Shown: positions 3,601-51,600 of the stretch, one piece after another
Numbering within the stretch: position 1 is the first letter of the stretch
Layout: each line of letters starts with the position of its first letter
Assembly: GCA_905178155.1 (NCBI GenBank)
Contig: CAJINV010000002.1
Coordinates: forward strand, 6,428,476-6,492,475
From: Amoebophrya sp. A120
Taxonomy: Eukaryota > Protista > Dinoflagellata
Direction of reading: 5' to 3'
DNA length: 64,000 nucleotides
Position numbers and translations under genes: made by a program
Notes under the pieces: model-generated
The model's input: the letters and a program-made list of their open reading frames with translations, nothing else
Told to the model about the DNA's origin: nothing
The model's database searches: none

Positions 3601-6600
3601 CGAATCCAGCGTTTTCCACCGCCTCCTCCGTCACCGGGACGAATTCCATGTCCACGGAAAGTCCAGTGATTGGCTCCAGCTCCGCGACGGACAACACGTT
3701 GGATAACATGCTCCTACTCCGGTTAACGCAAAACCTGTTTGCGGACTTCGAGTACGGTGTGGCGCACAACATCCTTGTCCCAGCTCTCACGCCGATCCCG
3801 AACCGGTACTGGATTGACACGTATGTGGAGACCGGCGACCCGACGGCCGGGGACTTCGACTACATTGCCAGTCTCGGCGCGCCAGGGTTCCGGACGCAGG
3901 CGCTGTTTAATACAGAGGTGATATCAAATGTAACAATGTCTGGGTCTGGAAGATTCCGGGATTTGTCATGCTAGTCCGGCATGACTCTGAGCTCTGTATT
4001 GCGTGGCCGCAAACGGCTTCTCTTGCCTGTCATGCAAAAACGCAGCTTCTCATGCGGAGTACGCAACTCTGAACCTAACCACGGAAAGACTTGTCATGCT
4101 TGGCAGTGCATTTTTACAGTATGCGCATTTTTCCCTGACTGGCATCACAAGTTTCCAGACCCAGACATTTTTGCACTTGATAGGTGAATGCGTACAACAA
4201 CGTGGAACTCGCTTGGAACAACCCGACGACCATACAGTTCGAGACCACGACCGCGGTGACGTCGATCTTGTCCGAACAGGGCACGGTGTTGAAGCAGGCC
4301 GAGCTGTACATCCAGGCCCCCCCGGGGTTCACTTTCATCTGCCCCACCGGCGGGTGGAACCCACCCACGCAGGTCATTCCGGACGGGTTCACGAAACTGC
4401 CCACGGACGCGGAGTGTTACATCAACCACCAGGTAGCGGAGGAGCGGCGCGTGGTGCACATTTTGTTCAAGACGGTTGGTTTGGCCATGAACACGAAGTA
4501 CATCTTCTTGGTGGAAATCGTGAACGCCGCGAGTGTGAACCCGACGACCAACAAGTTCGTCCTGGAGTCCCGGTTTGACAATGTGAAAGTCGAGGGAATC
4601 ACGATCGACGGCTACGATTTGGCGAAGCCGATGGCGAACACCCGGTACGCCGCGGCGGGCATGTTGGACACGGGCGAGGACAGAACGGTCGACGCCTACG
4701 ACAACCAAGTTTCTTTTGTCATGGGCGTCACGCAAAGGATGATCGCGAGCAGTGTGGTGGAGGTACTCAATAGAATCAACGCATAGCGTTGTATGATTTT
4801 TTTCTGCTAGTAGTACTAGTAGATCTACGCTATCTTCAGGACACCCATGACGCGGCAGATTGATGTGATGTGTGTGTCGGTTTCTTCTCTCTATTCACCC
4901 CATGGAAGTATCGTTGGGATGTTGGTGCTGAATTCATTGTACTGAACAGTGGAGCTGAGTTATTTTCAGATCGCTGATGAAATGACAGTAATTGCAACTC
5001 AACATCAAAATGTGATTCAAAAGGTCGGCGGCCCGACCGGTTTCCTGTTTTCCCCGCGTTGCATCGGGCACGTGGGGTGGGCCCAGAAGTTCGCCTCTGC
5101 CGAGACGCTGGTTTTCCCCGACGTGACGGAGTGCGTCTCAATGGCCGCGACCACCGGCGAGGGAAACAAGATCCGGATCACGGTGGCGACCGCCATGGAG
5201 ATCGGAGCCTATCCGTTCTTCGTGAAGGTGCAAAACCCGAATTTCAACATTCCCACGGAAAAAAACTACTGGACGATCCGAATCTACGAACCGGGAAGCA
5301 GCGTCGCCACCATGGCAGAGGCCTGGGTGGTCGGGTTCGATATTCAGGTATGGTTAGTTTGTAGAGTGAAGAATGGTGGACGAGGTCTTCTTCAGTATTC
5401 GGTTTTTGCTTTGTTATCGCGTTTGAAATGCAATTTCATTTTGTGTGTTGTGATGCAGTCGGTCGGAATCAATATCAATTGTATGCAAAATAAAAATATC
5501 TAGTGCCTATGTACTTATCATTTACAGGTCGTGAAAGACGTGGAGGTGTTCCCCTACAACCCGGGCAACGGCATTCCCGGCGAGGCCGCCCCGAACCCGC
5601 TGGACATTCGGTTTAAGCTGACCACGCGATTACCCTCGGTCTCCGAAGAAGCTAATGGAGCGCTGATATTGGTCGTGCCGCCGTTCGGGTTTCACTTCCC
5701 AAGTGTGTGCCGCACCTTCATGACGGACCCATACGCGGGGGATGCGACGAGCCCGTACATGGCTATTCCGTCCACGACAATTTGCAATCCGCCGGACTTG
5801 TACACGCCGGAACTGATTAATCTTTACTACAGGCTGGGACACCCGAACTTCTACCTGGAATTCGGACAGACGGAAACGGCGGTATAGAACAGCTACAATG
5901 ATGAATACCAGCTTTTTTGTTATTCGTTTCGCGAGGTGGAGGTGAATGAAGATCGGAAGTGGTTCATCTGTCACGGCACTTACTCACAATGAACTAGCCG
6001 TGCTCTACTTGTTGATAGAAAATGCCTGCTTTCTTCATTCAACATTCATATATGCAACAATCGGTGAACAATCTGCATATCAAAAGTTTCAACGATCGGC
6101 TACAGATTTCCGACGACATCCGTTGGGAGATTTATTTCCGGGAGGAACCTCCAGGCACGATTACGCGGATGTTCCGGGTGCGATCTGTGCCTGCCGGCGG
6201 GCCAGCGTACGCCAGATTAGTCCGCGCAGGGTACATCTTGGAGTCGATGACCTGCTTCCCCGAGGCCACGGGGGCGAACGGGGTGACCAGGCAAGAGGAC
6301 TGTCTGAACGCGGGGAAAAATTTCGCCGCCCTTGTGGAATCGAACTGCGGAACGATCGACGGACAGGTTGCGCTGGGCGCGACGCCGGCGATTCACGAGG
6401 CCTTTCTGAACAAGTTCGCGGATCGGGAAGTCGCGTTGGACCAAATTTCGGACTGCATCGCGCAGAAGGTGTGGAAGATCCACTTCGACGAGTTGTTGGT
6501 CCCCGTGGAGATGCGGCTCTCCGGCCCGGCACTGATTTTGAAGTTGGGAGAAAACACCCACATGGTGGCGGAGCAGCTGTACGCCTTCCGCGTGATGGTA

Positions 6601-9600
6601 GAGAACCCGATGCAGACCTTCGACAACGTGCACGATTTAACCCGGTGGTGGACCATTGAGACCCGCACGATGCCGAAGCCCAGCGTAAACAAGCGGTCGC
6701 AGATCAAGGACCGATTGGACTTGAATTACAAGGTGCACAGTTTCGCGGTGTACCCCAGGATCTCGTTGTTTCAGCTCCAAACCTTGAACTACATTGGGCA
6801 AAGCGAGACCGATGTGAAAATCTCCTTCGACATCATTTCTGATTTAGCCCCGCAAGCGACCATTCTCATCACCGCCCCCACGGAGTTCCAGTTCCGCGTT
6901 TGGCGGGGCGAGAACTCGCTGACTTTCGGCGACCCACCGTTGCCCAGCTACCCCTGGAACCCGCCACGCGATGGGTCGACCGGCCTGTTTTTGAACGTTT
7001 TACCGGACGGCACGGCGCACAGGCCCTGCATCTCGCCGTCGATAAGTGCGGCGGACTACCAGGTGATGGACCAGTTGTTCCCCAGGAGTGCGATCAAGGA
7101 CATCACGCGGTTGCCCGAGTACGTGTCGTGTGTCGTGATCAATGCGTACCAAATTATGATCACCAACACGGAGCCCGTTCGTGGCGGCCGGACTTTGATG
7201 GCCGGACCGGTGTATGAGTTTCTGATTGATGAAGTAGTGAACCCGCCGCGCACACCCTTCACCGCTTCAAACCTGTGGCGGATCGTTGCGAATACCACTA
7301 CCGCGCTCGGGCAGGAGGTGTGGGCGACGTATCCTGAGTAAAAACATCCCCACCCCATAGTCAAGATGGGGAATCTGCTAGACAAATCAACAAGCTTAGG
7401 TTGTTGCGCATGACAAATTTGGGCTCCTAGTGTAATGCTGTCTACGTCGTCCAGCAGCATCACAAATCTAGCCTATAATGCTGATAGATTGGAGCATTAC
7501 AAATTCCAAAACACGACTTGGAAATGCTTCCCATGGGTCTCCGCATGAGAAACATTTTGAGCATGCAAATTTGCATGACAGCTATGTGCTGGGGACGTTT
7601 TTACATAGGATACGACAGAGGGGTGGGTCATCTTTCCGGAATTGGCCATCACGCGAATCTCCAGCGACAACCCGGCCAATGGGCTGTTTACGACGTTCAC
7701 GATTCAAGTCGGAGTGTTGACCACAGTCCCCGGCCAGGGATCGATTCTGCTTCGCGCCCCGCGGGACGACTTTTACTTCGGGCCACGACTGGCGTTTGAC
7801 GGACCGCCGCCGGATCTGCTGAACCCGATCCCCCGCGCGTCTGGGGGCAGCCCGCCGAGGCCGGCGAAGGGCGGCCCGGACCTGCCCTGCACCATCGAGG
7901 CGCCGCAGCCGCAAGGGAATCTGCAGTTTATCTGCCCGATAACCAAGACGCCCTGCGAAGAGGTATGAACATAGGATTTGGGCCGTTTATCGTTTTAGTG
8001 TAGAAGTTGTAAGTTGTCTAAGTGCACTCTTACGTACAAGAATCAATTTGATGTTCTTGACAAGGGGGAGTATCGTATGAAAGATGAAACATAAATTACT
8101 AGTAGTAGCATCCTGGTGTCTACTGTTCCTTTTGTTGAACAAATCACAGAAAGCGCGGCTCGAGGCCTTGGACCTCGGGCGTTCTGCGAAGGACCAGCTG
8201 TATGCGCAGGAAATTCAGGCCCTGGAATTTCCCTGTCAGCAAGTGACCGCGGACTGCGCGTCGCGGCGGTACGACAAGTTGTTCTCCTGCAAGTACCGAA
8301 CGATTTTGAAGGAACAGGTAATGACGCCCGCGGAGCTCCAGGCAAACCAGGACCTCGTGACCGCGTGGAACTCGGCGAACACCAAGCAACTGACCTGGGA
8401 ACCTTTCGAGGCCCAACTGGAGATCACGCTCGCGACGGACATTTCGATGAAGCAGGACCAGGTGTTGACATTCTTGCTCACCGGGTACAACACGCTGTAT
8501 CGGAATTTCACCGCGTGGCAGAACGAATTTACGTTTTCCACCAGAAACGCGGACTCGGGGAAGACGACCCTGGATGAGCGAAAAGGCGTGCCCGGCTTCA
8601 AGCTTTTCGGTGTGGTATGGATTGCAAAAATGTCTGGGTCTGGAAGAATCCGAGTTTGTCATGCTAAATCTGATCGATGCAAAAATCTGTATTGCGTGAC
8701 CAGCAAAAGTCCTCAGTTTTGGTTACCAGAAGCCGGCATTTCTCATGTGGACTTAGCATTGCATAGCCTTCTCAAAACTTGTGATGCTAGAGCCCACATT
8801 CCAGACCTTCTGGGTCAAGCAAAATATGGATGACAAACCCGGCAACATTCCAGACCCAGACATTTTTGCATTTGATATGTGGTCTACGTCAGCAAAATCG
8901 ACGCGCAGGAGACGAAAGTGTCGAACACCTACAACCGGGTGGAGATCACCTTCCGGCTGACCAATCCGGTGAAGCAACGAGGGCTAATTATTCTGAGGAA
9001 AAACATCCCCACCCCAGAGTTGCCATGCAAATCTGCATGCCAACAAAGTTGCTCATGCGAAGCCCCATGAGAAGCTATTTCTAGTTGTGTTTTGGGATTT
9101 GTGATGCTAGGAATAGCATGATATGCTAGATCTGTGATGCTGCTGAACTAGCTAAACAGGTTTGCACTACGAGGCCAAACTTGTCATGCGAAGCAACCAA
9201 AGTTGGCTGATTTGTCTAGCAGATTTCCCATCTTTATTCTGGTATGGGGACGTTTTTACTCAGGATATTAATCCGGATCCAATACCCTACGAAGTTCGAA
9301 CTCCCGCCGCAGTCCGGCGGCGGCGCGGGAACCAACACGATTGATGTCAGTGAAACCGTGCCGAGAAAGGCGAAGCGGAGCCAGAGGGGGAACATCATCG
9401 AGTTAGACAGTGAGGACGAGGACTTCCCAGCTGGGTTAGACATGATGATCACGATCACTTTGTCCAATCCCGACATCTCCCCCGGGCCATCGGAGAACAT
9501 CTGGATCTTTGAGACGTTTGAGGTGTCGCCACAAGCACCAACGGGAACGACTCCGCCCGCCTCAGCGCTGACCATGATCGATTTGAACCGAGACGTGCAG

Positions 9601-12600
9601 GGATTCCGTATAGGCTCTTTTCGAAGTAGAAGGAAGATGCTTTTTTGTTCGTATGACTGAAGTGTCTGAAGATGCAGATGCTGATTCAGTATGACAGTAG
9701 TCGCATGAGATGTGGTTTTTATTTTGCCCAGCAAGACGCCAGTAAAACAATTTTAAGGTATTTACGGCGCGTTCCGTTCGACGAACGTAATTTCCACCAT
9801 TGACTCTCCGACTGTGGTGAACAAAGTCGCCGTCATATGCGAAGAAAAAAGTGTTACATTTACACATGGTGTTGCAGGCAACGCAAGACAGACAAGTTGT
9901 GTCATGCTGGATATGCTTAGGAGCCCGCTTCCATATTACGTGTTTATTTATTCCCTAGTGGTCTCTGCACTGCAAGTTTTCTCTGTCGTGCGGAGAAAGT
10001 TCTTTGTGTTGCTGAAGTTGCAACAAGCGTGTAACTACTGTAACATTTTTTTCTTGGGATACGGGACTTTCGTCCTCGAATCCGATCTCCGGTTTATTCC
10101 GTGCAAAAACGTCCCCACCCCAGAGTCAAGATGGGAATTTTGCAAAACAGATCCAGAAGTTTTTGCGGTTGTGCATGACAAGTTTGGGTCAGTAGTGTAG
10201 TGGTCCTTGGCTAGTGAAGGCACATCACAAACCTAGCTCCTTATCCTGATTGGAGCATGACAAAGTCCAAGACAGCATGAGAAAATGCTTCTCATGGGCC
10301 TCCGCATGAGAAACATTTTGAGCGTGCAGGTTTGCATGACAACCGCGTCGTTGTACTTGAGGATGTGTTATATGTCTCGGGCGCACGTACATACTAGCCT
10401 GCAGGGACGGCGGAGCCGGAAAAAATGGCACAGTATGGTTGGTGGCGAAATCAGAGTTGGAATATAGTGGCCGGGAGATGATGGTGATGGCGCTTTGGTG
10501 TCCGCCTGACCCACTCGCCCTGCGTCTCAGGCCACCTGCGGCTATGGCACAATGGGGGGGCAAAGTGCGTCGCTTTTTGTTTAGCATGACAACAACGGGG
10601 TGGGGACGTTTTTACATAGGATACGGCTCGACCCAACCGCGCGCTTGCAGATCTACATGCCTGTCGGCTTCATGCCCGTCGAGCTCTGCGGCGACTGGTC
10701 CCGGTCTTACCAGGACGGGAATCTAGTCTACACGGAGATCCCCCGTGGAACGTCCTGCCGCGCGATTAGCGACCCACTGGAGCCGGCGATCGAGTTGCGG
10801 CCCGGGGCGGTCTATGGATTGCAAAAATGTCTGGGTCTGGAAGGTTGCAACTTGTCATGCTAACTTTGGATGCTAAAAAAATCTGTATTGCATGACCAGC
10901 AAGGGGAACCAAGTTTGTGCTACGTGGGGAGGGCATTTGTCATGCTGTAGGGGCATCACAAAGCGCTCTAAAAATCTGTGATGCTACGGCATGCATCACA
11001 GACATCATGGGTCATAGAAAATATGCATGACAAATCTAGAAATCTTCCAGACCCAGACATTTTTACATTTGATACGGTCATCCAGTACGGGTTGGACTAC
11101 GCGTTTCAATTTGAGTATGGGACTGTCAGGATCGAAATCGACAAAATCGAAAAACTTGTGATGCACAAAATCGATGCCAGTTAGACCCACAGTTTGTAGT
11201 CGGCGCATGACAAATTTCCCTCGTCCTGGAAGCGAATCTGTCATGTGGTTTAGGACAAAAGAGCTTCCCTCTGTCATGCTTGCCACCAGCCCAATTCTTG
11301 ACCCTTAGCAGGACTACAATCTGCCTCCTTTGCGTTCTCTGCAATAGAGTCACTTTTTGTGTCGCATTTTCTGCATGACAGATTATTTCGACTTTGTCGA
11401 TTTCGATCCTGACACATCCATATTGAGGTCATCAATGCGGCTTATATCACGGACGAAAACAACTGGCGGTTCCAAACCATGCTGAACAACGTGGTCCTGC
11501 ACTTGGACAGAAACGTCTTTGGGTTCTCGCTGCAGGAACTGCAGGACGTATAGTTTTGTTTTTTGATTTGATCTTGAACTTGATCATGAAGAAGAAGTTT
11601 GTCCCACCCCCCGGGTGGCATAATTTTGGATGTTACAGGTCTACTTGTTCCTTTGTGTATGATTTATTACACGGGTCGTTTTGAGCAACTACGTAGATAT
11701 TTATGATGTCATTGGAGTACTTCTTGTGGTTCTGTAGTGGTACTAGTAGAATCCATGCTCTCGTCAACATCAATCAGATTTCCGTCCAACCCTACGACAC
11801 CACTCGTTCCGTGATGGGTCGATTGGCCGTGCAGATGCGAAGTACAAAGCTCATCACCGGCGCCTTATGGGAGTGTCAGGTTTGAAATCGACAAAGTTGA
11901 AACAACTTGCAATGCAGAAAATCGATACCAGTTGGAAGCCCAATTTTCAAGCAATGCATGACAAATTTTCCGAGCACCGGAATCCAATTTGTCATGCTGT
12001 TTGGGCACAGACGACTGCTTTTGTCATGTTACTTTAGCAGCTCTATCTCAAACCCTAAGCAGGCTGACAGTCGGCCTCACTTGCCATCCCGGCAAGACAG
12101 GCACTTCGTGCCTTGCATTTTATGCATGACAAACTATTTCAACTTTGTTGATTTCAAACCTGACGCTTCCATACGCATCCGACATTGTGATCACCGCGCC
12201 CATCGGGTTCAAGCCGCTGATATCGCAAGAAAAAACTGTTTCACTGTAAACTTGTAATGCAGAAACTGCATCTCAGAAGTGTTTGTCTTGCTACACATGC
12301 AAGACAGGCGATTTTTAGCTGTGTTTTCCCTTAGGAACCTCGCATGGCAAGTTTTCCCTGTCATGTGTAACGAACTTGTCATGCCAAACTTGCAAAATCC
12401 TTACAGTGAAACACTTTTTTCGCGCGATAGCTGAACACGCTGTTCACCATCCTGAACATTCCCGGCGGACACACGCTCGCTTCCACCACCACGTCGACCA
12501 AGGATAACAACAAGGTGACCTTCACTTTAGATTCCCAGGACCGCGTCGAGCCGAATCTGATGTTCGGGGTGGAAGTGTGGATCACCAATCCCGAGTTCAC

Positions 12601-14281
12601 GCCCGCAGATAACGTGTGGAAGTTCGAGATCACGGATCAGGCCAAGAATTTCATCGATATCAAGCAGCAGTTATCAAATGCAAAAATGTCTGGGTCTGGA
12701 AGATTGGAACAGTTGTCATGCACATTTTGCATGACCCATGACGCCTGTACTGCATGACCCAGCATCACAGATTTTGTGAGGGCTTTCTGATGCCTGAATA
12801 CCCCCTCCGCTGAGCAAAAACTGGACTCCTCTTGCTGCTTACGCAATACAGATTTTTTTCGAATCCAAAGACAGCATGACAAGTTCCATCCTTCCAGACC
12901 CAGACATATTTGCATTTGATAGCAGTACCCGGGTTACGACATCACGGGCGCCATGTTCACGGACGTGAAGGCGTATCGCAAGAAAAAACTGTTTCGGTGT
13001 AAGCTTGTGATGCAAAAAATGGAAGAACACAGAGGCATTTGTCTTGCTACCCATACAAGACGAGGGATTTTCAGCCGTGTTTTCCCTTAGGAATCTCGCA
13101 TGGCAAATTTTCTTCGTCATGTGTAACGAACTTGTGATGCAGAACTTGCACAATCTAAATCCATGCCGTGAAACACTTTTTTCGTGCGATAAGGCGGGGT
13201 TTCCCACAAAGTCCAGGGCAAACGTGATTGAGGTGATCTTCGTGCCGACCACCATCATGAACCAGGCGGACTTCGAGAACATTTTTTTCCTGAAGGGCCC
13301 GGCCGGGTACCGGTTTCCGCAGGTGTGCAACCCGGAAATTTTCGACCTGAAGTACACGAACCCGATGGAATATCCAGGAAAAAAAAATGTGCAAGTGTAA
13401 CTTCATAATGAAGAGTGGCATCTACTTCACAAATTCGTTTTGCATTTTTACGGTCAATAACCTGTCATGCGCAGCTAGTACGTGGAAACGCGTATGAAAG
13501 TTGTGGCCTATGACACACATCCAGCATGACAAGTGTAAACAGTGTTGCATTTTCTGCATTTCAGACTTACATCTACACATTTTTTTTCTTGCATATGGAA
13601 CTGGAAACGAGTTCCATGGGCCAGCAGGCCAAGGACACGGTGTTCCCGCCGGACAATCTGCAGTGCATCGGCTCCGGGAACGAAACGGTCACCATCAAAT
13701 TCCCACGCGGCTCGGGGCTGTTGGTTTTCAACTACACATTGACCCTGGAAGTGATGAACGTATCACATGTGCAAAAGAATATCATACTTCTTTCGATACT
13801 TTAATTGCAATCTTCTTGCATGACGGATTTGTGTTTGTCTCCCTCCGAAGGCAAATCAGCATTTACAAAATCCACATCAATATTTGCTCAGCAAGATCTA
13901 CTTGAGTAAATTTGTCACGGAGAAATTTCATACAGATAGATAGTGCGATCATACTTTTGCAATGCATAGAAGGCAGCGGAAGATCACGTGGAGAACATTT
14001 GGCACTTTGAGACCAGGAAGAAGGGCTCCTCAGCGGAAACGGCTTACACTATTGTCGATGCAAACCGGACGATTCCCGGCTTCAGACTGCAGGACTTGGA
14101 ACTCGCACCGGAGGAAGCGGGGTACGCGAGTGGGCGGTTTGGGGTCTCGGTCTGGAACACGATAGTTCCTTTGCTGAGTGCATTGCTGCTGGTGATGCTG
14201 AGCAGTGGCGGGACATTCTTTGGGGGGCGGCTTGGAGAGGACCAGCAGGGGACGAGAGCGGGGCGAGGCAGGAGGCGATAG
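661..14281 (+). CDS. Giant repeat-module surface/secreted protein (5'-partial, >2380 aa, 24 exons in window)
   Basis: Exons 661-1277,1535-1709,2618-3256,3439-3921,4188-4762,5024-5347,5528-5881,6106-7329,7618-7962,8150-8615,8883-8988,9273-9607,9758-9835,10067-10094,10629-10812,11080-11115,11428-11547,11778-11865,12179-12220,12435-12671,12927-12973,13197-13370,13601-13760,13974-14281 join in one frame (8 GT-AG introns, 15 TIR elements). Recurrent module I-x-x-P-x-G-F..C..LP..C..Y-x-F..V-x-NP..N-x-W. C-terminal hydrophobic stretch IVPLLSALLLVMLSS. Function unknown. Confidence 0.85.
1278..1529. mobile_element. Introner family A (TIR TATCAAATGCAAAAATGTCTGGGTCTGGA)
   Basis: TSD TCGCG/TCGCG; removal gives PIA-TQGYG. 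Confidence 0.92.
1790..2510. repeat. GC-skewed, homopolymer-rich insert inside canonical intron 1710-2617, probable decayed TE
   Basis: Abrupt compositional shift from the AT-rich intron flanks; weak end similarity TCACCGAA..CCGGGG / CCCCGG..TTGGTAA; boundaries approximate. Confidence 0.45.
3922..4182. mobile_element. Introner family A
   Basis: TSD GGTGA/GGTGA; TEV-NAY; can be read as GT-AG 3918-4183. Confidence 0.93.
7330..7612. mobile_element. Introner family B (TIR TATCCTGAGTAAAAAC[AG]TCCCCAC)
   Basis: TSD CGACG/CGACA; WAT-EGW. Confidence 0.92.
8616..8877. mobile_element. Introner family A
   Basis: TSD TGTGG/TGTGG; FGV-VYV. Confidence 0.92.
8989..9267. mobile_element. Introner family B, opposite orientation to 7330
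   Basis: TSD CTAAT/TTAAT; GLI-RIQY. Confidence 0.9.
9836..10061. mobile_element. Introner family E-like, aged
   Basis: TATGCGAAGAAAAAAGTGTTACA / TGTAACATTTTTTTCTTGGGATA; TSD CGTCA/CGGGA; frame restored. Confidence 0.78.
10095..10623. mobile_element. Introner family B carrying a nested 250-bp insertion
   Basis: TSD CGGTT/CGGCT; 529 bp minus 250 bp gives 279 bp, the normal family size. Confidence 0.88.
10344..10583 (+). mobile_element. Nested structured element, copy 2
   Basis: Flanked by direct repeat GCATGACAAC (10334-10343, 10584-10593); 3' ~160 bp homologous to 295-454. Confidence 0.8.
10813..11074. mobile_element. Introner family A
   Basis: TSD CGGTC/CGGTC; GAV-IQY. Confidence 0.93.
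11116..11422. mobile_element. Introner family C (TIR TATGG..TGTCAGGATCGAAATCGACAAA)
   Basis: TSD TTGAG/TTGAG; QFE-VIN. Confidence 0.93.
11866..12173. mobile_element. Introner family C
   Basis: TSD CGCCT/CGCAT; TGA-SDI. Confidence 0.92.
12221..12429. mobile_element. Introner family D (TIR TATCGCAAGAAAAAACTGTTTCAC)
   Basis: TSD GCTGA/GCTGA; KPL-NTL. Confidence 0.93.
12672..12921. mobile_element. Introner family A, opposite orientation to 10813
   Basis: TSD GCAGT/GCAGT; KQQ-YPG. Confidence 0.93.
12974..13191. mobile_element. Introner family D
   Basis: TSD AGGCG/AGGCG; VKA-GFP; GC-AG reading possible. Confidence 0.93.
13371..13595. mobile_element. Introner family E (TIR TATCCA[AG]GAAAAAAA..GTGTAA)
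   Basis: TSD TGGAA/TGGAA; PME-LET. Confidence 0.9.
13761..13968. mobile_element. Introner family H-like, aged
   Basis: TAT..TGCAAAAG / CTTTTGCAATGCATA; TSD GAACG/GAAGG gives GT-AG 13760-13972. Confidence 0.8.
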
Positions 14282-15774
14282 CGAAGGAGGTCATGATCCG
14301 TCGGGGACGGTACCTATTTCGTGGTGTCAAAACAACTTCGTTGTAGTAGGAACTAGGAACAAAGATGCACACAAACAGCTACTGCTGGACTTTTTGTACG
14401 CAAAAAGAAAAAATTTCTGTTGAAACCGAGAGCATAACTCTACCTTAACGAAGATCTTCACTGTCATTGTCAAACCCTTGTAAGAATTCTTCAAGGCTTG
14501 CCGTTTCCGCCCAAGCCCTCTGATAAGTTTCTGCCAAATAACAAAGAAAACCCATGCGCTTCCGACGGATAATAAATAGGTCAAGAATATAGCCTACGCA
14601 GCTTATTGGAATTGATGAACTTGCACTGGAAAGAGTCGTCGAAATCTTTTGTAACTGAGCTCAACCTGGTTCTTGCTTTTTTTCCCTCATATACAACAAA
14701 CTGCGACCTTTTTTTTGTCTCTTGAATTCATCACACTTTGAAAATGAGTAAATGCAAATAGAATTGACGAAATTATCACAACCAGCAGGCTTGTTGTCCT
14801 GGAAGTTCAGGCACATGTGCTCTCCATTTGCTCCTGTGCGCTGTGGTTCTAGGGCATACAACCCGCTGGTTGCAGTCACTAGGTAAAAATGAGTTAATAT
14901 TCCTCAGCGGTTTTTCCGCAAGACTTCTGATCTTTCGATTATACGCAACCAAATTTGATGAGGAGAATCTTCTATCAATATTTACAACCTCCAATTGGGT
15001 CCTCCGATGCAATGGTTCTTAATCTACTCTTCACAAAAGTCGAGAGGTGGTAAGTATCTATCTTCTACAGTATGAAGCAAGAGGACGCTGAGATGCAGAC
15101 GGCGACCCATGCTGACGTACCCAAAGTCAGGATGCTTTGTTTCCTCGATGGTTGTTGTTCTTTGTGGAAGGACAAAGGACCAGGTTCCTGCGCAGGAGCA
15201 GCATATCAGTATGCAGAGAACTAATGTGCTGCACCTACTGGTGAAAAGCACCGACAGCACAGGAAGAAGATCTCCAACACACCACACGAAAGATCTGTTT
15301 TTCTCTCAAAAAAGAAGTTGTCCAGTCTTCGTCGACGACGATCTCCCAAACACGACCTACGTCAATTGTTTCACTATTTCCAAAAAGCGCAGCAATAGCC
15401 AGCAACAGATGTAGGAAGGGGTTTAATTAGTGTTGAATCTGCGTGGTCTGCCGCACAGTAGGAGAAACAGTTCGCGGTGATATCTCTCCAGATACTTGTT
15501 TACAAACTGATTAGGAATATTGTAGTAAATGTAAATGTACGTCGTACGTAATTACACAAAAAGGCAAACTCGACGTCCGTGCGAGCTTGACTTTTCTGAA
15601 ATTTTTTTTCGCTTCAGGCCGTAGCTCGGCTGAGTTCTCTTGCCTGCGGTTCGATATAGTAACTACTTCATCACAGAAGTAGTCCACCTCAGTTGCTTGC
15701 GACTCTGCTGTACAACAACTTCCGGATTTTTTCAATTTTTTTGTAGCCCCATAAGCGTAAAACTTGTCGCAAAG

Positions 15775-18700
15775 ATGACGACGATTCTCGCCTCCGGGCT
15801 GCAGGTCAACTTCGAGAAGTTGTACCAGTCGATGCTATATGCATTGCAAATTTGTCTGGGTCTGGAAACTTGTGATGCAAGGAAGGAAATAGTGACAGTA
15901 AGCACACTGTTGTAATGCGCTGCCAAGCATGACAAGTTTTCTCGTGGTTCTGAGTTGCGTACTCCGCGTCAGAAACCGCGTTTTTGCATGACAGGCAAGA
16001 GGAGCTCTCTGCGGCCACGCAAAATACAGAGTTCGGAGTCCCGTGCCAGACTAGCATGACAAATTTCGCAATCTCGCAAAGGACCGACACAGACATATTT
16101 GCAGTCGATATGGGATTCAACAATTTTCAGCTGAGCATGAAACTTCCCAACAACTGGCTGACCAACGAGCTCGATGTGTCCAAATTCCTGAACGCGAAGA
16201 TTCAGAACGAGATTTTGAAAATCTCTCGGTCCCACAGCCAAAGAATCAAGCCGATTTCCACCGCGGCGCAGAAGAAGCTGGAAGACGAAAATTACTATGG
16301 TGATAATCATAATATTAACGTGACCCCGGAGCAAATTATCGAGGAGGAAAACCGCATTGAGACGCGGAGGATTTTGTTCCTAAAACCAACCCGGATAAAG
16401 TTCTCGCAGCTGGTAGTGTACCCAGTTTTTGGAAGCGGGAAGCGCGGGCGGGAGACGAAGGAGCACGGCGGGCAGGCGCTGCAAGAGGCCGAGGCGACCA
16501 TTACTTGCAGCGCGTTCACCGGGTTCACGGAGGAGATGATGGATCTGCAGGAGAAGGAGCGGGACACGTTTCAGACGTTGCTGCAGGAACAAAAAAACCG
16601 GATCCGGGAAGAAGGATGGAAAAAGGCGGAGGAGAAGATAATTGCGCCGGCAGCTGCACCAGGTACGTACTGAGGGTTTGCATTTGATTGTATGTACTTA
16701 TTCGAATTTAATCATAATCTACCGACGTAAAGATCGTTTTTTGAAACGACAAACAGAACAAGGGATCAGACGGTAGATTATATACTCGACACGTTTCAGC
16801 AATCAAATGCGGCTGAATTTTTGTCCACTCGACACACGTCGACCACAGGAGCCTCATCCATTCAAGTACCGCTCGCGGGTAGTTCAAAGGAATCGGTGGC
16901 AGGGCAGATCGCGCAATCGAACGAGCAGCCGTTGCCGTCGCCGCCGATCGAGTCCGGGCCGGATTGGAATTCTGCTGAGGGGGTTGCAAGGAAAGACATG
17001 GCGGAAAATGTCGCCAAAGCAGGGCTTATCAGATGCAAAAATGTCTGGGTCTGGAAGAAATCAGACGTTTGTCATGCATTTTCTACATCTACAAAAAGGT
17101 CTGGAATGCACACAGAGCATGACAAACTCTGTGGAGGCTTCTCCATGCCTATTCCGCATGACAAATGCCCTCTTCTGGAGACAAAATTCGGGTACCTTTC
17201 GCTGACTACGCAATACAGATTTTTGCCTGTTCCAGAATCCGCATCACAAGTTCGCATCCTTCCAGACCCAGACATTTTTGTATTTGATAGGGCTTTTGGG
17301 GCAAGGTAAAATATCTTTGATGTTGGGCTTGTTGTTGTCATGAAACGATGAAAAATCCGCGGGCCACTACATCACTACGTCTTTTTCGATTTTTGGGTTT
17401 GGTTTTGGTTTTCCATGGAAGTATGGCGGCGCGAGCTCATTTTTTTTGAGAAATTTTTTTTTTTCATATGCCATTTAAATGCCTAGCAATATGTGCATTT
17501 ACTGGCCCCATTACTGTAGCGCCCCATTACTGGCTAAGCTTCGCGCGCCCGTCTTGTTTTAGGGCTCGGGGGATTCCGTTTTGCCTTCCTGCGGAAGGTG
17601 TCTCGGGGGCCGCCATTTCGCCTTCCTTGCCCTCTGGTAGGTCTCTCCCTGGCGGAAGGACCGCTGCTTGATTGCCTCTCTGGGGAGTGTGAGTTGTTTA
17701 TTTCCTGGCTGGCGCGAAGCTTTCGCCATCGACTCCAGATTGATAAATGGCCCGAGCTTATTGACACCTCCTGCGCGACGTGGGTGGTTCGGGGTTTTTC
17801 TGTGCCCGGGCTCGCCGAGGCGTTTTGGATTCGGCTTCGGAGCGCGCAGGTTTGCGGCTGTCCGGGGCTGTGCGCGTGTGCTTACAGCTTTTGCGCCGGG
17901 GGCCCCGGGTTTTTTCTTTTGTGTCCCGGGGCCTCGTCGGCCTCGTCACATCTACGCCCCGGGTCCCCGGAACATGCATGGCCCGTCGGAAGGCAGGCCA
18001 GCCTTCGGTAAAGGTAGGAAGGTGAGGGGGTTGCAAGGAAAGACATGGCGGAAAATGTCGCCAAAGCAGGGCTTTTGGGGCAAGGTAAAATTGCTTTGAT
18101 GTAAGTGGTTGAGCTTGTTGTCATGATGAAACGGTGAAAAATCCGCGGACCACTACATCACTACGTCTTTTTCGTTTTTTGGGTTTGGTTTTCCATGGAA
18201 GTAGTTCCAAATGCAAAAATGCCAAGAATCATGATGGCGACACGACTGACACCACCAGTCAATAAAAAAAAAACAGTGAACATCCTAAACGAGCCCTGGA
18301 TTCGGAACCATGAGTGTTTCAGGAAGGTTTCATATCCAAGAAAAGAACATTGTGGGTGTAACTTTGTTGGAGGAACAGCATTACAAATGTGTCTGGCATG
18401 ACAGCAAAAACCTGTCATGCGCAGATAGTACGTGAAAACGCCCTTGAATGGGCTCTACAATGCATGCCCAGCATGACAGACGTAATCATCTTGCATGTTG
18501 CGCATCACAAATTTACACTAGCAACGTTTTTTTGTTGGATATTTCAACGTGGAAAATGGTCCACCGCTACGTGTCGTCCGTGGCGCTCACGTACGTGCAG
18601 ATGTTCGGAACTGAAAAAGCTGCCGAGGCAGTGAAAAAGCGCACCACCCCCGCGTACGTATCAACGGACCCGAAAGAGCTGATTTTGGGACCGGACCACA

Positions 18701-21700
18701 GGGATCACCACAAGATCCAGCACCAACTCGACCCGCAGAGAATCGACCACGATGTGGACCCGGCGAAATTCATCTCCCTCGAGGAAGCTCTGGGAACACA
18801 GGTAATAACGGATTACGCGTTCACGGATATGCGCCACTTGCGAATTCCCGCGCAGAACGCGAACTACATCCGAGATGAGTTCCGGAAAGTCTTGAAGGAG
18901 TGTGTGGAGCACTATCACAAGCACTACGACAACCGAGGAATTTCGCGGGCACTTCCGCCTGACAACACGGAATTCAGTGGTGAGCGAAGCTTTCCGGCGG
19001 GCGTTATAAAAACATCAAAGGGCGGACCACAACACGAAGTTCCAACTTTCGCACAAGAGCAGGCGGGAGGCAGTAGCAGCAGTAGTTACTACCACAAGAA
19101 TCCTGCTCCTACTAGCGCAGCACCTCCGAACGGCGACGCGGCCCTGCGGGACTATATGGTCCACCAGAGTAATAAAAACAAGGGAAATATTAAAAATGCA
19201 GCAGCGGCTGCATCTATGCAACAGCAGAGCAACATGAAAGGCGGCGGGGGCAAAGGTGCGAAGGATAAACAATACATGATAGAGCAGTACCACCTCGCTC
19301 TGCAACGGGAAAGAGAGCAGAAAAAGATGCAAACACAGCAAATACCGACCAATTCTTCGATGTTGGCCAATCAGTCGCAAGACGAGCAAGCTGCTGCAAT
19401 GCGACGGCCAGAGGCGATGGTTCCTCCGGCGCCGGGGGGTGGTATTGGTTTTCCACCAGGTTACGAAGCTGCTGCTGGGCCGCCGCAACCGCCATCCTCG
19501 CAGTACATTCTGCAACAGCAGCAGAACTACGCGCAGATTCCACCTGGGATGAAGCAGGGTTTTATTGCAGAGGAAGAGCTAGGAACATCAAACGGAAAAG
19601 GCAGTGGAATGAAGGGACTGTATCAACAACAGCCAGGAGCGCAACAGCAGCAGCTGCAGCAGCAATTTAACATGCACCAGACGGAGCAGAGTTTCTACAA
19701 AGGCGGGCCGCCCATCATGAATAGTAAAGCTACTCCTGTTCATGTTCATCCTGCTGGGAGCAGTAGTTTCGGAGGTGGTGGTGGAAAACAAGGCGGCAAT
19801 AAAAACGGCAAGGACCAGCAAACCTACTCCAAGGGCGATTACGTGCGCATGCTGCAAGAGAAAGGGTACCGAATTCAGAAGGAGGGGCAGCATCAAGCGT
19901 GTCCGCCCGAAGATGAAGGGATACAAGGTAGATTACGTGAACAAGAAGACGCTGAAGGAAATTCTGCAGCCATGAGAAAGAGCACCGCTAGTACTGGGAG
20001 GAAAACAAGTGCATCTTCACGAGCAGGGCCTTCTGTTGTTGACAACCAGGAAATGAAGCAACGCTACTTGTTCTCCAACACGGACGAAGGACCAATTGTG
20101 AAACAAGAGCAGGCTACTTTGTTAGAAGAGGACGCCATGGACCGTGAAGAAGTTGAGCTTCCCATCGAGCAAACTCGGTTGATTCCCTTTTACGACGAGG
20201 GCGGAGCAAAAATAAACCTAGAACAACCTCTGCTGTCACGAAGACTCTTCGAGGGCGAGCACACGATGCAGGAACAAAATGATAGAAGAGACAACAACAC
20301 CTACAACAGTCCGGCGGCTACTGCAGGAAATAAAGAACAAAAGAAAAACTACCAAAAAACTACTCCCGCGCATTTCTTTTCCCCCACGAAACGGAACCAG
20401 AAAGCCGACCGGCCGAAGTACCTGCTGACCCACCCGTTCCCGGTCATCCGGGTGATGAAGCACCGGCCGAAGATCCGGGATTCCAATGGAAAACCGGTTA
20501 TGGACAAGAGAACGAACCAAGTGAAATTGGGGAAAGAGGAGTGGTTCTCCGTCGACAACCGCAGATTGCTCTGCTTGCAAAGGCGAGCGGTTCTGTACGA
20601 AGAATTGTTTGACATTGACTGCTATCAAATGCAAAAATGTCTGGGTCTGGGAGCTTCCGAGACTTGTCATGCAGATTTTCCATGATCCATGTCGTATGGA
20701 ATGCAGCACCTAGCATGACAGATTCTGTGAGATCCCTACCATGCGTATCCTGCGTGAGAAACTCCCTGCCAACTTGGTCGAAAGTGGACAGCTTTTGGCA
20801 CGCATGCAACACAGATTTCTGCATGATCCAGAATTAGCATGACAAGTTGCAACCTTCCAGACCCAGACATATTTGCAATCCATAACTCCTACGTGACCGG
20901 CGTCGAGATGTTCGACGACACCCACTTCTCCGAGATCAAAAAGTTCCGCACGCGAACCAACGGGGAAACCATCGAAATTGGGTTTTACAAGGGCCACGGC
21001 CGGGCGAACGTCGGGCGGGATACAAAAAACAACGGGGGGGCCATATTGCAATGAAAAATGCCCCCACCCCCGAACTCGGGAGCATTTGTATTGCAAACCT
21101 TTCCAAATGAAACATTCGCCCTCTTACATCTATCAGCATCACAGATTTCCGATCGTGAATAGCAAAAGTTTGTATTGCAAAAGATCCTAGCAAGAGCGGC
21201 GCTTGTCATGCAAGCGATGCGACACACACCTAGACTCTGCATCAGAAAGGTTTATACTCCTTTCATGCATGACAGAAAGTTTTCATTTGGAAACTTTGCA
21301 TCACAAATTTTTGCAACTTTGGGGGTGGGGGCATTTTCCTCGCGATAGACCAGCACGGATAACGAGCAGGCGGAGAAGAAAGATGAGCGGTGGTACTGGT
21401 GTTGGGAGGCGAACGACTGGAAGTTGCACGTCACTGAGAAGAAGGAGAAGAAGATCGGCATGCACAATTACATGTGGGATCACCTGCAGGCAAGGGATTT
21501 TGTCAAAACCTACGTCCGGAAGAACAAAAGGTATACTATACAGTTTTCACAACTTATCTAAAGTACTTTCTGAGAGACTTGTTGCAGCACTGGATTTGAG
21601 ACAAAATGACGAAGATTATTCGATTATAAAGACACTACATTTTTATGTAAATTAAAATTACAAAACTACAGCGACCTGCCCGACCCGGGTGAACTGCTGA

Positions 21701-27522: not shown

Positions 27523-27646
27523 TGTTTAGTTCGTTTGATAGCTATTTCGACACGCATGAAGCTCTCGCTTTTCGTTCTTCACCTCACTGTGGCCCATAGC
27601 AGTGCGCTTTGTTGAACCTTTGTTCAGTTTTACTATGGACGCATCC

Positions 27647-44660: not shown

Positions 44661-46203
44661 ATGTTTAGCGGTGGCGTGCATCATTCCCCGGTGCGGCCGC
44701 GCGCCAAGACGCAGTGGGGGCGCGACTGGACCAAGGTCGGGTACCAGCAGAATCTGGGCACGAATCTTTCAAGCGTGCAGAAGTCGGCCGTCCCCACGAA
44801 GCAGCACCATCATCATGCTACCACGGCGATGAAACAAGCCACGAAGAAAACGGGTGGCGCGAGTGCTGCGGCTGCGGTGCCAGCTCCGCCGAGGGTGATC
44901 GGTGCGACGCTCCCGATGCTGGTTAACAATAACCATGGCATGCCGAAGCTGAAGCCGTATCAAACCATCGTGGTGCAGCCGCTGACGGGGAAAAAGATCG
45001 TCCTAGACTCCCGGACCATGCAGCCGATCGCGGTACTGAAGATGTTTTGTTGTCGTGGTCACATCCGCGATGCTACATTTCTTGAACCAAAAGGCTGCTA
45101 GACATGCTTTTGCTTTTATAGTAGGTGCCATTTTTGGTTCTCGACATCTGTACTGAGATACTTATTTAACACGACAGGATTCCGTGCGACTATCAGTAGA
45201 CTATGATGATGTTTCAAGTTGAACACGTCTTCAAGACTTGTTTTATGCAGGTTTCACTTTATTGCACGACCACGATTGCATTGTCGACAAAGAATCGAAA
45301 AATCGCAGGACCTAACCACCTATGAAATGCAAAAGCATCGTACTAGTATAAATCGCATGACAAATCACCTCAGCATGAGAAATAGAATTTGTAATGCGGA
45401 TTCAACTTGAGAAAGAAATTTGTAATGCATGAATGCGATCAGTACGACTACGATACTTTTGCACAGGATACCACCACCGAAAGCGGGAAAGTGAAGATGG
45501 TGCCGATTCGTGCTGACCACGTCGTGGACAAGGAGAACCAGAAGCCTATCCTGAGTAAAAACGTACCCACACCAGAGTTGTAATGCAAATCTGCATGCTG
45601 AAAATGTTTCTCATGCGGAGCCTCATGAGAAGCATTTTCTAGTCGTGTTTTGCAATTTGTCATGCTCCAATCAGCATGGTATGCTAGGTCTGTGATGCTG
45701 CTGAGCTAGCTCAAACAGCACTACACTACGAATCCAAATTTGTCATGCAAAACAGCCAAAACTTGTGGATTTGTCGAGCCGATTTCCCATCTTGACTATG
45801 GTGTGGGTACGTTTTTACTCAGGATAAAGCCGAGCCAGCAGCAGGCAGTGGTGAGCAAGATGAACAATGGCACCACCCGCAACCCTATCAAATGTAAAAA
45901 TGTCTGGGTCTGGAAACTTGTGATGCTGGGTGGCGTATCATGAGGAGGCCACAAGTGCTCGCTCAGCATGACAAGTTTCTGAGCTTCTAGGTGTTGCTTA
46001 TTCTACATGACAAACTGCGTTTCTGCATGACAGAAAAATGGCGCTCTTGGGTAACGTGCATGACAGATTTGAGAGTCATGCCAGACAAGCATGACAAACA
46101 TGCAATCTTCCAGACCCAGACATTTTTACATTCGATAAACCCGCACACGCACCTGTCTCCGGCGACCACGGCGCACCTGTCTCCGGGTGACCACTCTCCC
46201 TGA
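44661..46203 (+). CDS. Hypothetical ~189-aa protein
   Basis: Exons 44661-45032,45309-45320,45476-45546,45832-45885,46143-46203 (one GT-AG intron, three TIR elements) join in frame to TGA. Confidence 0.7.
45321..45470. mobile_element. Introner family H (TIR TAT...TGCAAAAG.ATCGTA)
   Basis: TSD CCACC/CCACC; 150 bp. Confidence 0.9.
45547..45826. mobile_element. Introner family B
   Basis: TSD AAGCC/AAGCC; perfect ~27-bp TIR. Confidence 0.94.
45886..46137. mobile_element. Introner family A
   Basis: TSD AACCC/AACCC. Confidence 0.93.
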
Positions 46204-46209
46204 GGGACC

Positions 46210-46473
46210 TATCAAATGCAAACATGTCTGGGTCTGGAAGAATGCAAATTTTTGGCATGGTGTTTTTGCATGACACAGAGGGTCGGTCATGGAAGCCCTC
46301 GCATCACAGATTTCGAGAACGTTCCGTGATGCTTCATCCGCATGACAAATGCACCTGTTTCGTGACAGAAAATGGGAGCCTTTTGCGGCATATGCATGAG
46401 AGAGTTGTGCGTGTTGTGGAATTTGCACAACAAATTCGGATCCTTCCAGACCCAGACATTTTTGCATTTGATA
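46210..46473. mobile_element. Introner family A in putative 3' UTR
   Basis: TSD GGACC/GGACC; starts 6 nt after the inferred stop codon. Confidence 0.9.
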
Positions 46474-48656: not shown

Positions 48657-51600
48657 ATGCCGAGTCTCCAGCCCCCAATAGGCATTGCATATTACTGTGT
48701 CTGGGTCTGGATGGAAGTGCAACAAGGGTGCAAGCTTGTGATGCTGGTTCTGGAATTGAGTTTGTGTTTGACAGAAACCTGTTTTGCAGACTGAGTCAGC
48801 CGCAAGAGGCGTTTCCACCAGTGAGGGTATTTTTCATGCAGGCTGGGGTTGAATGACGTGTACGGCAGATGAACTTGTGAAGATGCTCTGCGTGCATTCC
48901 AAACCTTGTCGCAGATCCAGAAACTGCAACATCGCAGATGTATCAATGTACATTTTTGCCGACCCAGACAGGTGTGGTTTGCCGTTGATACCCGGATGCG
49001 GACATCGATTTCGAGTCTCTGCCTTGGAATGTGAACTGCAGTGAGAAGTCACACATCGTGGTATGCACCACCAAAAAAGACTGGAAAGAGGGAGAGCACT
49101 ACAACGTCAATATCGCAAGAAAAAACTGTTTCACCGTGAACTTGTGATGCATAGAATGGAACACAGAACTATTTGTCTTCCCACACCTGCAAGACCTTGA
49201 CTCTTTAACGGTGTTTTCCCTTTGGAAGATGGCAAATTTTCTGACTTATGTGTAAAATCTTGTGATGCAGATCTTGCAAGATCATCACAGTGAAACAGTT
49301 TTTTTGTGGGATAGTCAACTATGCGACTGCAATAAACCAAGAAGTGCAGTGCATAAAAACGACCCCCTATACCGGTTTCCCGGACATTTTCCCTTCCTGC
49401 ACCAGCTTGAATTACGGAACTACGGTATGGGAAGGTTTGAAAGTGTTCCGCACGTCGAAACAGCGCGCGGTGGTTTTCCGCCCAGACAAAAACTACGACA
49501 GGATGTCCAACGGGGCGCAGGCCATGGTATAGAATGATGGATACAAGAACAACTAACTTCTGCTTTCTGAGATCAAGAAATGTTTATGTTTTTAATGAGC
49601 AAATCTATGGAAATCGAAGATCAAGATCTTCGATGTTGCCCGCTCTGTTGTCGCCCGAATTTTAGAAAGAACTGTGCCTAGTAGAGACCACTTCTAGTTG
49701 TACTCGCTCGTGCAGTTTTTGCCATCTCAGCTCCCCGTTGTCTTCTTCTTTGTTGTGAGCCCGATCTAAGATGTTATACCGTTCCAATATGATTTTAGGC
49801 TGATGAAGCTGCTGTTACTTATTTTTTCCAATGGCGCCATTGTCAGCTCCTCCCCGTGCCGCCACGGGAAATGTGGTTCAAGCAGCTGCAGACGGTGATC
49901 CGGGAGAATTCCACTCTGATACCCCCCTGCGGGGAGGGGATGAAGCTCTACGTGCGCCCGATACTGTTCGGCAGCGGGCAGCAGCTGGGGCTATACCCCA
50001 GCCCGCAGTTTACGCTGGCGATGTACGTCGCGCCAACCGGCAACTACTTCAAGTCGGCCACGTCCGGCCTGAAGTTGCACCTTGAGAAGCACCACGCGCG
50101 GGCGACAAGGGGAGGATTCGGCAGTGTGAAATGCAGCGGAAACTACGCGGTTTGCCTGTTGCCCCTGAGCAAGACCAAGGAGAAGGATACGGGACAATCG
50201 AAAAAATCCACCGCACCTTCACCAGCAAGATCAACATATATATAAAGTTAAATTTTTCGTATTGAGTGTGTGAATGCGAATGCGTTGTATGCGAATGGTG
50301 TAGTTTGGTGGTATGGGCAATGTTTTTATGGCTGACTTGTCGAACAAGAGCAGCGAAAGCGCATAGAAGTTGTAGGTCATCCTCTCGGCAGACGTTTCTA
50401 CTAAAGTTGCGAAGATGGTCCGATGTGCATCCCAGCATGTACCTAGCAGACGCTTCTGAAGTGCAAGTTTATGATTTTCAGTATTCGATGAATCTTTAAA
50501 ATACTTCTACTGTCATGTTCATGACTAGCGGATGGTGCTTTTCTTTCCATACACGGTTTCTCCGACAACATGTATGTTGAGCTGGACTCCTTCCACGCTG
50601 GTACGATTATGTAAATGTATGTTGAAGATTTGCGAACAGATTTCTTCGCTACCTGTAGCTTCCTCTGCTTTCTGGTGAACAGTACAAGAATCGTTCTATG
50701 TGGTCATCGAACAAACAACGTCGGGCATCATGATAGACCGCTCCAACATACGGCGTGTTTACGTTGTATCTATCGTCCTCTATATTATGTACGATATAAT
50801 CACGACATTAGATGAAATTTTGTTGCAATTTTCCGCACTATTTCCACAGGTAAGGAGATCCACAAGCACGACACGAAGACGGCACTTCTGAATTCCATCG
50901 TGCAAGAGATGTCCGCCGCCAACGTGTTTTTTGTGCAGAAGGCAAAGAAGCGCATTCTTACACCCTCTCTGAAAAGGAAAACGATCCTGCCCGGTGTCAC
51001 GCGGGACAGCGTCATCCAAATCGTATCCTGTGCAAAAGTATCGTACTCGTATGAATTGCAGTCATGCATGACAAACCGACCTTTTTACCTGAATTAGCAT
51101 TACAAATTCCATTTTTCTTTCTGATAAAATTTGTAATGCAATTTATACTAGTACGATACTTTTGCAATGCATAAATCGTGAAAGCGTACAACGAAGAAAT
51201 TGCAGCGGCCCTGTTCACGGCACCGGAACTCGACGAGATTAAGGAAAAGGAAGGCGGGAAGTTTCCGGTCATCGAAATGCTGGAAACCGATGTGCAGGTG
51301 GCGGACATCGCGGACTGCTCTGAAGTATGCATTGCATACTACATCAAAAGTTGTACGGATGCCGCGATGCTAGGTTGCATGATATATTATCACGCAGCGA
51401 GAAGTACTAACAATAAAATCAAAATTTTGATGTCACCAGAAAAGTCTTGCATGCAAACATATTCTGGCAATCAGTTCAAGAAGCGCGATACTCGTACCGC
51501 TTTTTTAGTGGATATGAGGCATTTGGCACGGGCACGGCCGCGGAACTAGTGCCGATCAAGGAGTTCGCCGAATATTTGAACAGTGAGGATGTCGAGGAGG

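Follow-up and report, generated by a model that had tools for sequence, protein, structure and literature searches.

Introner elements of Amoebophrya sp. A120 are removed from RNA in either orientation, likely in a single cut register

We analyzed a window of 64,000 nucleotides (nt) from the dinoflagellate Amoebophrya sp. A120 (contig CAJINV010000002.1 of assembly GCA_905178155.1, positions 6,428,476 to 6,492,475; positions below are those of the window). The genes in this window are interrupted by short repeated elements with inverted ends. A preliminary description, made from the sequence alone, had proposed that the same element is tolerated in both orientations within sense transcripts. 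We found that copies in both orientations are spliced out of RNA, and that the cut is likely made at the same place relative to every element.

Introner elements at the locus

The window's exons are 100% identical to Amoebophrya sp. A120 proteins, and its elements are the published introner elements (IEs) of this strain (PMC7789003). A120's IEs have inverted repeats that start with TAT, followed by seven looser bases and then As, and they have direct repeats of 3-5 nt; they form families and hairpins, and they are non-canonical introns with RNA-seq support (PMC7789003). We found 237 repeat pairs when comparing the window with itself, and a scan for paired ends showed that the elements are mostly 150-360 nt long, start with TAT, end with ATA, have terminal inverted repeats (TIRs) of 25-30 nt, and are flanked by 5-nt direct repeats (target-site duplications, or TSDs). 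We took 43 window elements into later counts. Like A120's IEs, the elements in the window form families of repeats and are taken out of the RNA.

In place of a genome-wide count, we used 145 metagenome loci that were found by scanning for the end pattern of family A. Together with two viral loci, they total 420 kb, and they share no exon overlap with the window. The metagenome loci contain 279 unique elements, while 125 kb of shuffled sequence contained none. The element finder tolerated up to 2 mismatches at the 5-nt repeat, which was exact in 236 of the 279 elements; other lengths occurred at about the rate expected by chance. (We had considered a 4-nt TSD with a spare base, but we dropped this model.) Across 252 elements from the window and the metagenome loci, the TIR consists of TAT, about seven looser bases, and a run of As.

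Family A includes two subfamilies, A1 (3922/15838) and A2 (10813/12672). The long variants of family B, at 329-659 and 10095-10623, share an additional segment that is at least about 140 nt long. Two contigs from a viral collection (L146 and L147) each have one exact 19-nt match to the repeat core of family A, which may be due to chance. Most of the elements, at 150-360 nt, are too short to encode a transposase. No Pfam match was found in one frame of a 1.6-kb element, which was the only interior that was scanned for domains, and no transposase turned up, although no search aimed at transposases was made.

The motif SCATBACA is specific to the elements, with 123 occurrences in 11.4 kb of elements and 5 in the other 52.6 kb. 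The preliminary description had suggested that removal depends on symmetric features, namely the TIR stem, the TSD, and a bidirectional motif. The TIR, the hairpin, and the 5-nt duplication are indeed common to both orientations. The internal motif probably does not act as a splicing signal: in family B, the copies within an element nearly all have the same polarity (31:2 vs. 0:41), and elements of either polarity are spliced. SCATBACA would more plausibly be a binding site for a transposase.

Removal from RNA in both orientations

The preliminary description named six pairs of reverse-complement sister elements in genes on the + strand, and these pairs hold up. All of the named coordinates are the first base of a TAT...ATA element that is flanked by 5-nt direct repeats. 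We aligned each pair after cutting 30 nt off each end, so that the TIRs could not drive the result, and we compared each score to 200 shuffles. All six pairs align far better flipped than on the same strand. The identities are 75.7% flipped vs. 47.2% same-strand for 3922/15838, 74.8% vs. 55.3% for 10813/12672, 78.5% vs. 49.6% for 7330/8989, 82.1% vs. 51.5% for 7330/45547, 66.7% vs. 52.0% for 7330/61490, and 71.7% vs. 55.6% for 45321/51024. The flipped score exceeded the best of the 200 shuffles for all six pairs, with the thinnest margin for the family H pair 45321/51024 (76 vs. 16). The host genes are on the + strand, as given by the open frame of gene 1 and by a codon model that calls the + strand for all 43 window elements.

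Once the 7 GT-AG introns of gene 1 and its 14 elements, with a 5-nt repeat copy for each, are removed, 6,926 nt remain, with a frame of 2,049 codons, and in 13 of 14 cases, retaining a single element would truncate this frame early. A contig from run X1 (record 1) is also 6,926 nt, and all 13 offsets that we checked agree with the gene model. Within 8890-16330, one contig each from X1 (depth 27.3) and from X3 (depth 198.9; a second sample from the same study) skips both GT-AG introns and all 11 elements of gene 1 that lie in this stretch. For the elements between 8989 and 13761, each join removes the element and 5 nt. We took X1 and X3 to be RNA because both skip GT-AG introns and neither has depth at 15115-15363. 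(The raw RNA runs X8, X9, and X10 do not cover the exons of the window. About 80 raw reads from X8 have family-A ends, matching 8616-8699 and 11074, and continue into unrelated sequence that was not found in the metagenome or viral loci; these reads could come from a family member elsewhere that is unspliced or longer.)

Three families are skipped both ways in RNA: subfamily A2 (10813 vs. 12672), family B (10095 and 7330 vs. 8989), and family D (9836, 12221, and 12974 vs. 13371). The retention of antisense copies in mRNA would have spoken against the preliminary description; instead, the flipped copies of A2, B, and D are skipped in the RNA contigs. Among the elements that it named, RNA shows the removal of 3922, 7330, 8989, 10813, and 12672. 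For 15838, 61490, and 51024, the evidence is the public annotated proteins (and, for 51024, conservation in orthologues as well). For 45321 and 45547, the evidence is reading frames within a candidate gene model at 44661-46483; a protein search for this gene gave no match, probably owing to the length window used.

Could the RNA joints be artefacts of reverse transcription, from template switching across the hairpin between short direct repeats? Strong hairpins between direct repeats are a classic substrate for this, and all of the RNA evidence is from cDNA-derived contigs. We consider this explanation very improbable, because retention would truncate the frame of gene 1 for 13 of its 14 elements, because residues of an aminotransferase that are conserved in orthologues require removal, because all 14 elements are missing from one unbranched contig, and because the register of the join is the same even at four elements (9836, 10095, 11866, and 13761) whose repeats have just 1 nt in common there.

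The preliminary description also allowed for excision at the level of DNA, as for the internal eliminated sequences (IESs) of ciliates, and the TIR and TSD anatomy is typical of DNA transposons. This part was not supported. The depth of run X5 is even (37-45) across exons, introns, and intergenic DNA, so we took this run to be DNA, although the kind of run is not on record. In X5, 14 of the 15 listed contig ends that are adjacent to an element extend 25-84 nt into it, and two contigs cross elements completely. (Contigs break in repeats, so ends within elements are expected.) The sole end that stops at the duplication, at 17027, has an element-free duplicate in the genome, at 18023-18203, which is an internal control for how an empty site would behave. 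Furthermore, the RNA contigs have a single form of each join, with no mixture of registers, but contigs can hide minor forms. In a cell without a separate somatic nucleus, the loss of an element from DNA would be inherited. The evidence from X5 is from one sample, from contigs only, and from the 8 pieces listed; this sample may represent a single life stage, and contigs drop rare variants. Even so, we give excision before transcription hardly any chance: the elements are removed from RNA, not from DNA.

The segments at 16976-17423 and 18023-18203 are local duplicates, and the second copy lacks the element at 17027 and has one copy of the TSD, which is to say that it is an empty site. The 52 nt upstream are identical and the downstream part is 84% alike. 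The element may have been inserted after the duplication, or it may have been lost precisely.

The preliminary description proposed counting orientations per family across the genome; our count covers the metagenome loci and the window. We called the host strand with the codon model, which was correct for 43 of 43 window elements when the gene was held out. (It replaced a 4th-order Markov caller that was correct for 18 of 27 validation cases.) Among the 279 metagenome elements, 217 had a confident strand call, and 209 of these had a frame that spans the join; the other 70 were dropped. Of the resulting 252 elements (209 + 43), 226 fall into 12 families, with zero inconsistent orientation edges. 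(In the counts of orientations and end bases, the end of window element 51326 is off by one.) The ratios of the two orientations are 38:42, 28:19, 15:8, 10:12, 12:7, 10:4, 4:1, 4:0, 2:2, 3:1, 2:0, and 1:1. None of the families differs from 50:50 (lowest P = 0.125), and the summed chi-square is 9.92 (7 degrees of freedom, P = 0.19). Thus, there is no bias in orientation among the 252 elements. The four window elements of family C (11116, 11866, 33033, and 36632) all have the same orientation (4:0, P = 0.125), which is too few to weigh.

The cut register

We define the register p as the number of bases of the upstream copy of the TSD that are kept. It can be read where the two 5-nt copies differ. 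From RNA, p is 4-5 at 9836, 10095, 11866, 13761, and 20623, 1-5 at 8989, and 0-4 at 7330. From proteins, p is 4-5 at 15838, 2-5 at 21044, 0-4 at 48679, and 3-4 at 50188. The register at 50188, in a branched-chain aminotransferase gene, is fixed by a glycine that all 6 aligned aminotransferases share: the conserved K-G-F of the orthologues is obtained with registers 3 and 4 only. At 61836, 51326, and 51604, the mismatch is synonymous and hence uninformative. (A GC donor at 48683 was dropped, as the true start of the element is 48679.) The only value that fits all 11 informative sites (7 from RNA, 4 from proteins) is p = 4. So, the cut likely follows one rule, N/TAT...ATA NNNN/, where the slashes mark the cuts: the first falls 1 base upstream of the element and the second 4 bases downstream. 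This asymmetry was absent from the preliminary description.

If the geometry of the cut were tied to the element, then flipped copies would show p = 1. Instead, the upstream letter is kept at each of the 8 sites whose TSD copies differ at positions 2-4 (5 from RNA and 3 from proteins). If orientation were a coin toss, the chance of this would be 1 in 32 for the RNA sites or 1 in 256 for all of the sites. We infer that the register is set by the direction of transcription and not by the element.

At p = 4, the donors of the 252 elements are GT (80), AT (68), CT (61), TT (42), and GC (1). In other words, the junction bases are unconstrained, intron positions +2 to +4 are TAT, and the T at +2 is kept in 251 of 252 elements. 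The one exception is the GC donor, from the element at 61836-62045: it is the only element whose first T has become C at the transcript's 5' end, and the preceding base is G. The nine predominant splice motifs of A120 all have T as the second base (Table S4 of Farhat et al., PMC7789003), which agrees with this register, while the legend of Figure 3 of the same paper describes the splice border as variable or unknown.

Table 1. Host gene 1 and 18 elements in the window, with the evidence for removal. Registers are values of p.
Feature	Position	Strand	TSD, register, and evidence
Host gene 1 (part under the X1 RNA contig)	2821..15057	+	14 elements and 7 GT-AG introns; 2049-codon frame
A1 element	3922..4182	+	TSD GGTGA/GGTGA; skipped in X1 (pieces ...3915, 4182...; record 913/914)
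B element	7330..7612	+	TSD CGACG/CGACA; register <=4; RNA piece ends at 7324 with no other letter listed; exact offsets
A2 element	8616..8877	+	Piece end 8610, exact offsets
B element, flipped	8989..9267	-	TSD CTAAT/TTAAT; register 1-5; RNA joint 8984>9269
D element	9836..10061	+	TSD CGTCA/CGGGA; register 4-5; RNA joint 9834>10066
Long B element	10095..10623	+	TSD CGGTT/CGGCT; register 4-5; RNA joint 10093>10628
A2 element	10813..11074	+	TSD CGGTC; RNA joint 10807>11075 in X1 and X3
C element	11866..12173	+	TSD CGCCT/CGCAT; register 4-5; RNA joint 11864>12178
A2 element, flipped (same gene as 10813)	12672..12921	-	TSD GCAGT; RNA joint 12665>12921 in X1 and X3
D element, flipped	13371..13595	-	RNA joint 13364>13595
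Element reading GT..AG at register 4	13761..13968		TSD GAACG/GAAGG; register 4-5; RNA joint 13759>13973
A1 element, flipped	15838..16110	-	TSD TGCTA/TGGGA; register 4-5; removed in annotated protein P0121
A2 element, flipped	20623..20884	-	TSD ACTGC/ACTCC; register 4-5; RNA piece ends 20621; P0121
H element	45321..45470	+	TSD CCACC; removal by reading frame only
B element, flipped	45547..45826	-	TSD AAGCC; removal by reading frame only
TAC...ATA element in branched-chain aminotransferase gene	50188..50551		TSD AAGGA/CACGG; register 3-4
H element, flipped relative to 45321	51024..51173	-	TSD AATCG; removal gives VTRDSVIQIVKAY, as in P0001 and orthologues
B element, flipped	61490..61767	-	TSD CATGC; removed in annotated protein P0123

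Several other features of the window were noted. The public protein P0001 reads into the element at 51604-51814. Removing this element restores a C-terminus that is conserved in orthologues, so the annotation is likely wrong there. The element at 46210-46473 begins 6 nt past the stop codon in one candidate frame and possibly lies in a 3' untranslated region. A gene for the RNA 2'-phosphotransferase Tpt1/KptA (PF01885), at 52810-56591, has three elements, including a degenerate TAC...ATA element of 1,626 nt (53750-55375) whose removal gives a frame of 517 codons; the presence of this gene beside these elements is probably due to chance. GC-rich blocks at 1787-2510, 17424-18022, and 22900-24750 have no Pfam match and no similarity to each other or to the metagenome loci.

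Mechanism and comparison with known systems

The preliminary description argued from the strand specificity of spliceosomal signals that removal depends on symmetric features, which would fit structure-guided RNA splicing or DNA-level excision. It was right that both orientations are removed, but this alone does not exclude the spliceosome: with mirrored ends, the linear sequence at the 5' end of the transcript is the same whichever way the element lies, and spliceosomal introners that function both ways round are described in Polarella and Aureococcus (bioRxiv 10.1101/2020.10.14.339549). We favor removal by a relaxed spliceosome, with some confidence. The donor looks spliceosome-like for four reasons. 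First, the register places the terminal TAT at +2 to +4, which is also its position in 6 of the 7 RNA-supported canonical donors of gene 1 (GTAT; the seventh is GTAC). Second, in a relaxed scan of 211 elements, the first two bases of the TIR vary in just 1 transcript-5' arm (which becomes GC) vs. 9 transcript-3' arms; also, where the third base varies in a 5' arm, the arm is preceded by G in 5 of 6 cases. Third, A120 retains almost the full set of spliceosome proteins, along with U2, U4, U5, and U6. Fourth, snRNP27 was not found in A120, and neither was U1 (PMC7789003); in yeasts, the loss of SNRNP27K goes with donors that have U at +4 (PMC10581693). The acceptor has no sequence of its own and so would be set by position, with either the hairpin or a branch A within the terminal ATA as the reference.

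The elements' history and removal might then be as follows. A cut-and-paste transposase that is blind to the direction of genes would insert them. The spliceosome would read TAT from whichever of the mirrored ends is transcribed first. The donor N/UAU would be recognized in the same way as ordinary G/UAU donors, perhaps by the ACAGA box of U6, with the G at +1 no longer needed (U1 is reported missing). The acceptor would be found not by an AG but by its distance from the base of the hairpin or from a branch A within the terminal AUA. The element leaves the RNA along with a single copy of the 5-nt duplication, and a lariat with a branch near A-7 is predicted. We put the chance of this specific version (a spliceosome that lacks U1, needs neither G at +1 nor a final AG, takes UAU from the end transcribed first, and places the acceptor four bases past the hairpin) at about even.

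Several observations weigh against this reading. An acceptor without any fixed dinucleotide is extreme for a spliceosome: the last two bases of the intron are AG in just 19 of 252 elements, and 7 of 252 have GT..AG ends. (Counted over all six possible registers, there are 19 cases of GT/GC..AG.) A branch-like YTRAY is present at -7 in only 95 of 252 elements, and a stem of 25 base pairs would need to be opened. The asymmetry between the arms is small, was noticed post hoc, and was re-counted on overlapping data, and two of its rows are debatable. As for the register, none of the families is informative at TSD positions 2-4 in copies of both orientations, and the upper bound rests on one RNA site and two protein-based sites. 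A codon-usage test of the register, with 37 mismatches from the metagenome loci, gave no signal (18:19). Finally, the flipped element at 15838, the twelfth in the stretch 8890-16330, has no RNA joint. An X1 contig ends at 15838, and the exon behind the element (16111-16330) has a depth of 0 in both X1 and X3, a hole that proves nothing in itself.

The main alternative is a non-spliceosomal RNA machine, either similar to that of euglenids or an endonuclease with a ligase, that recognizes the end-to-end hairpin and cuts 1 base before it and 4 bases after it. Such a machine would account for the lack of AG and for the free base at +1. An end-to-end hairpin is predicted in 251 of 252 elements on the sense strand and in 252 of 252 on the antisense strand (for example, z = -7.6 for 10813 and -10.3 for 12672), and the offsets of the cuts from the stem are fixed. 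The non-conventional introns of euglenids, whose machinery is unknown, are a precedent with TIRs and TSDs (PMC11282704). Against this explanation, the register coincides with that of canonical GTAT donors, some elements read GT..AG in the same register (as at 13761), and the first two bases are better kept in the 5' arm than in the 3' arm. In addition, TIR positions 4-8 pair in just 795 of 1,257 cells, and G.U pairs are no more common than A.C pairs on the transcript strand (246:258, a weak test). We consider such a machine rather unlikely, and less likely than the relaxed spliceosome.

The elements and the system are already published, and introners that work in both orientations are known from elsewhere, so the observation that prompted this analysis is not new in itself. 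The method of Gozashti 2022 allowed for copies in the opposite orientation, and Gozashti 2025 describes the diversity of A120's introners, with no mention of orientation or register in the part available. Our search, which excluded figures, subscription journals, and the supplements of preprints, found no statement about a 50:50 orientation or a register in A120. A single register for A120's elements is likely a new rule, and it is testable.

If this rule is true, it would explain the “unprecedented diversity” of A120's splice motifs. Insertion into any site in an exon, either way round, would immediately create a perfect intron, with no luck required in the target site; this would explain why the insertions need no special target and have no preferred orientation. 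The rule would also take DNA excision off the list of mechanisms. It offers a handle on the question raised by Farhat et al., of how A120, without U1, splices out its tens of thousands of introns that are not GT-AG, as it points to where branch points and pairing with small nuclear RNAs should be sought. And it would correct gene models, such as the public model that misses the element at 51604.

How do A120's elements compare to known systems? In ciliates, programmed excision leaves IESs absent from the transcribed DNA, while A120's elements are present in the DNA-like run X5. Close parallels are introner-like element classes 2, 3, 6, 7, 8, and 10 of Polarella glacialis and the introner elements of Aureococcus, which are introns with TIRs and TSDs in either orientation (bioRxiv 10.1101/2020.10.14.339549). 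As in A120, transposons with TIRs and TSDs make introns either way round and leave the mRNA unchanged. But those introns need GT, GC, or GA along with AG, from the element or from the TSD, while A120 needs neither the G at +1 nor the AG; and Polarella's classes 6, 8, and 10 are biased in orientation, while A120's elements are not. In Fritillaria borealis, non-canonical introns that derive from TIR elements are removed by an adapted spliceosome (PMC11282704), which is a precedent for the relaxed spliceosome that we favor. These are also derived from miniature inverted-repeat transposable elements, with a TIR, a TSD, and non-GT-AG ends, but their dominant ends are AG-AC or AG-AT, while A120's are NT-NN. 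In the non-conventional introns of euglenids, a TIR stem likewise joins the ends (in A120, the stem is predicted), with TSD-like repeats and no GT-AG (PMC11282704). Those introns have Y/R junctions, pairing of CAG with CTG at +4 to +6 and -8 to -6, and circular excision, while A120 has N/TAT with free junction bases. Within A120 itself, Farhat et al. 2021 (PMC7789003) described splice positions that are variable or unknown, while we find orientations at about 50:50 and, likely, one register.

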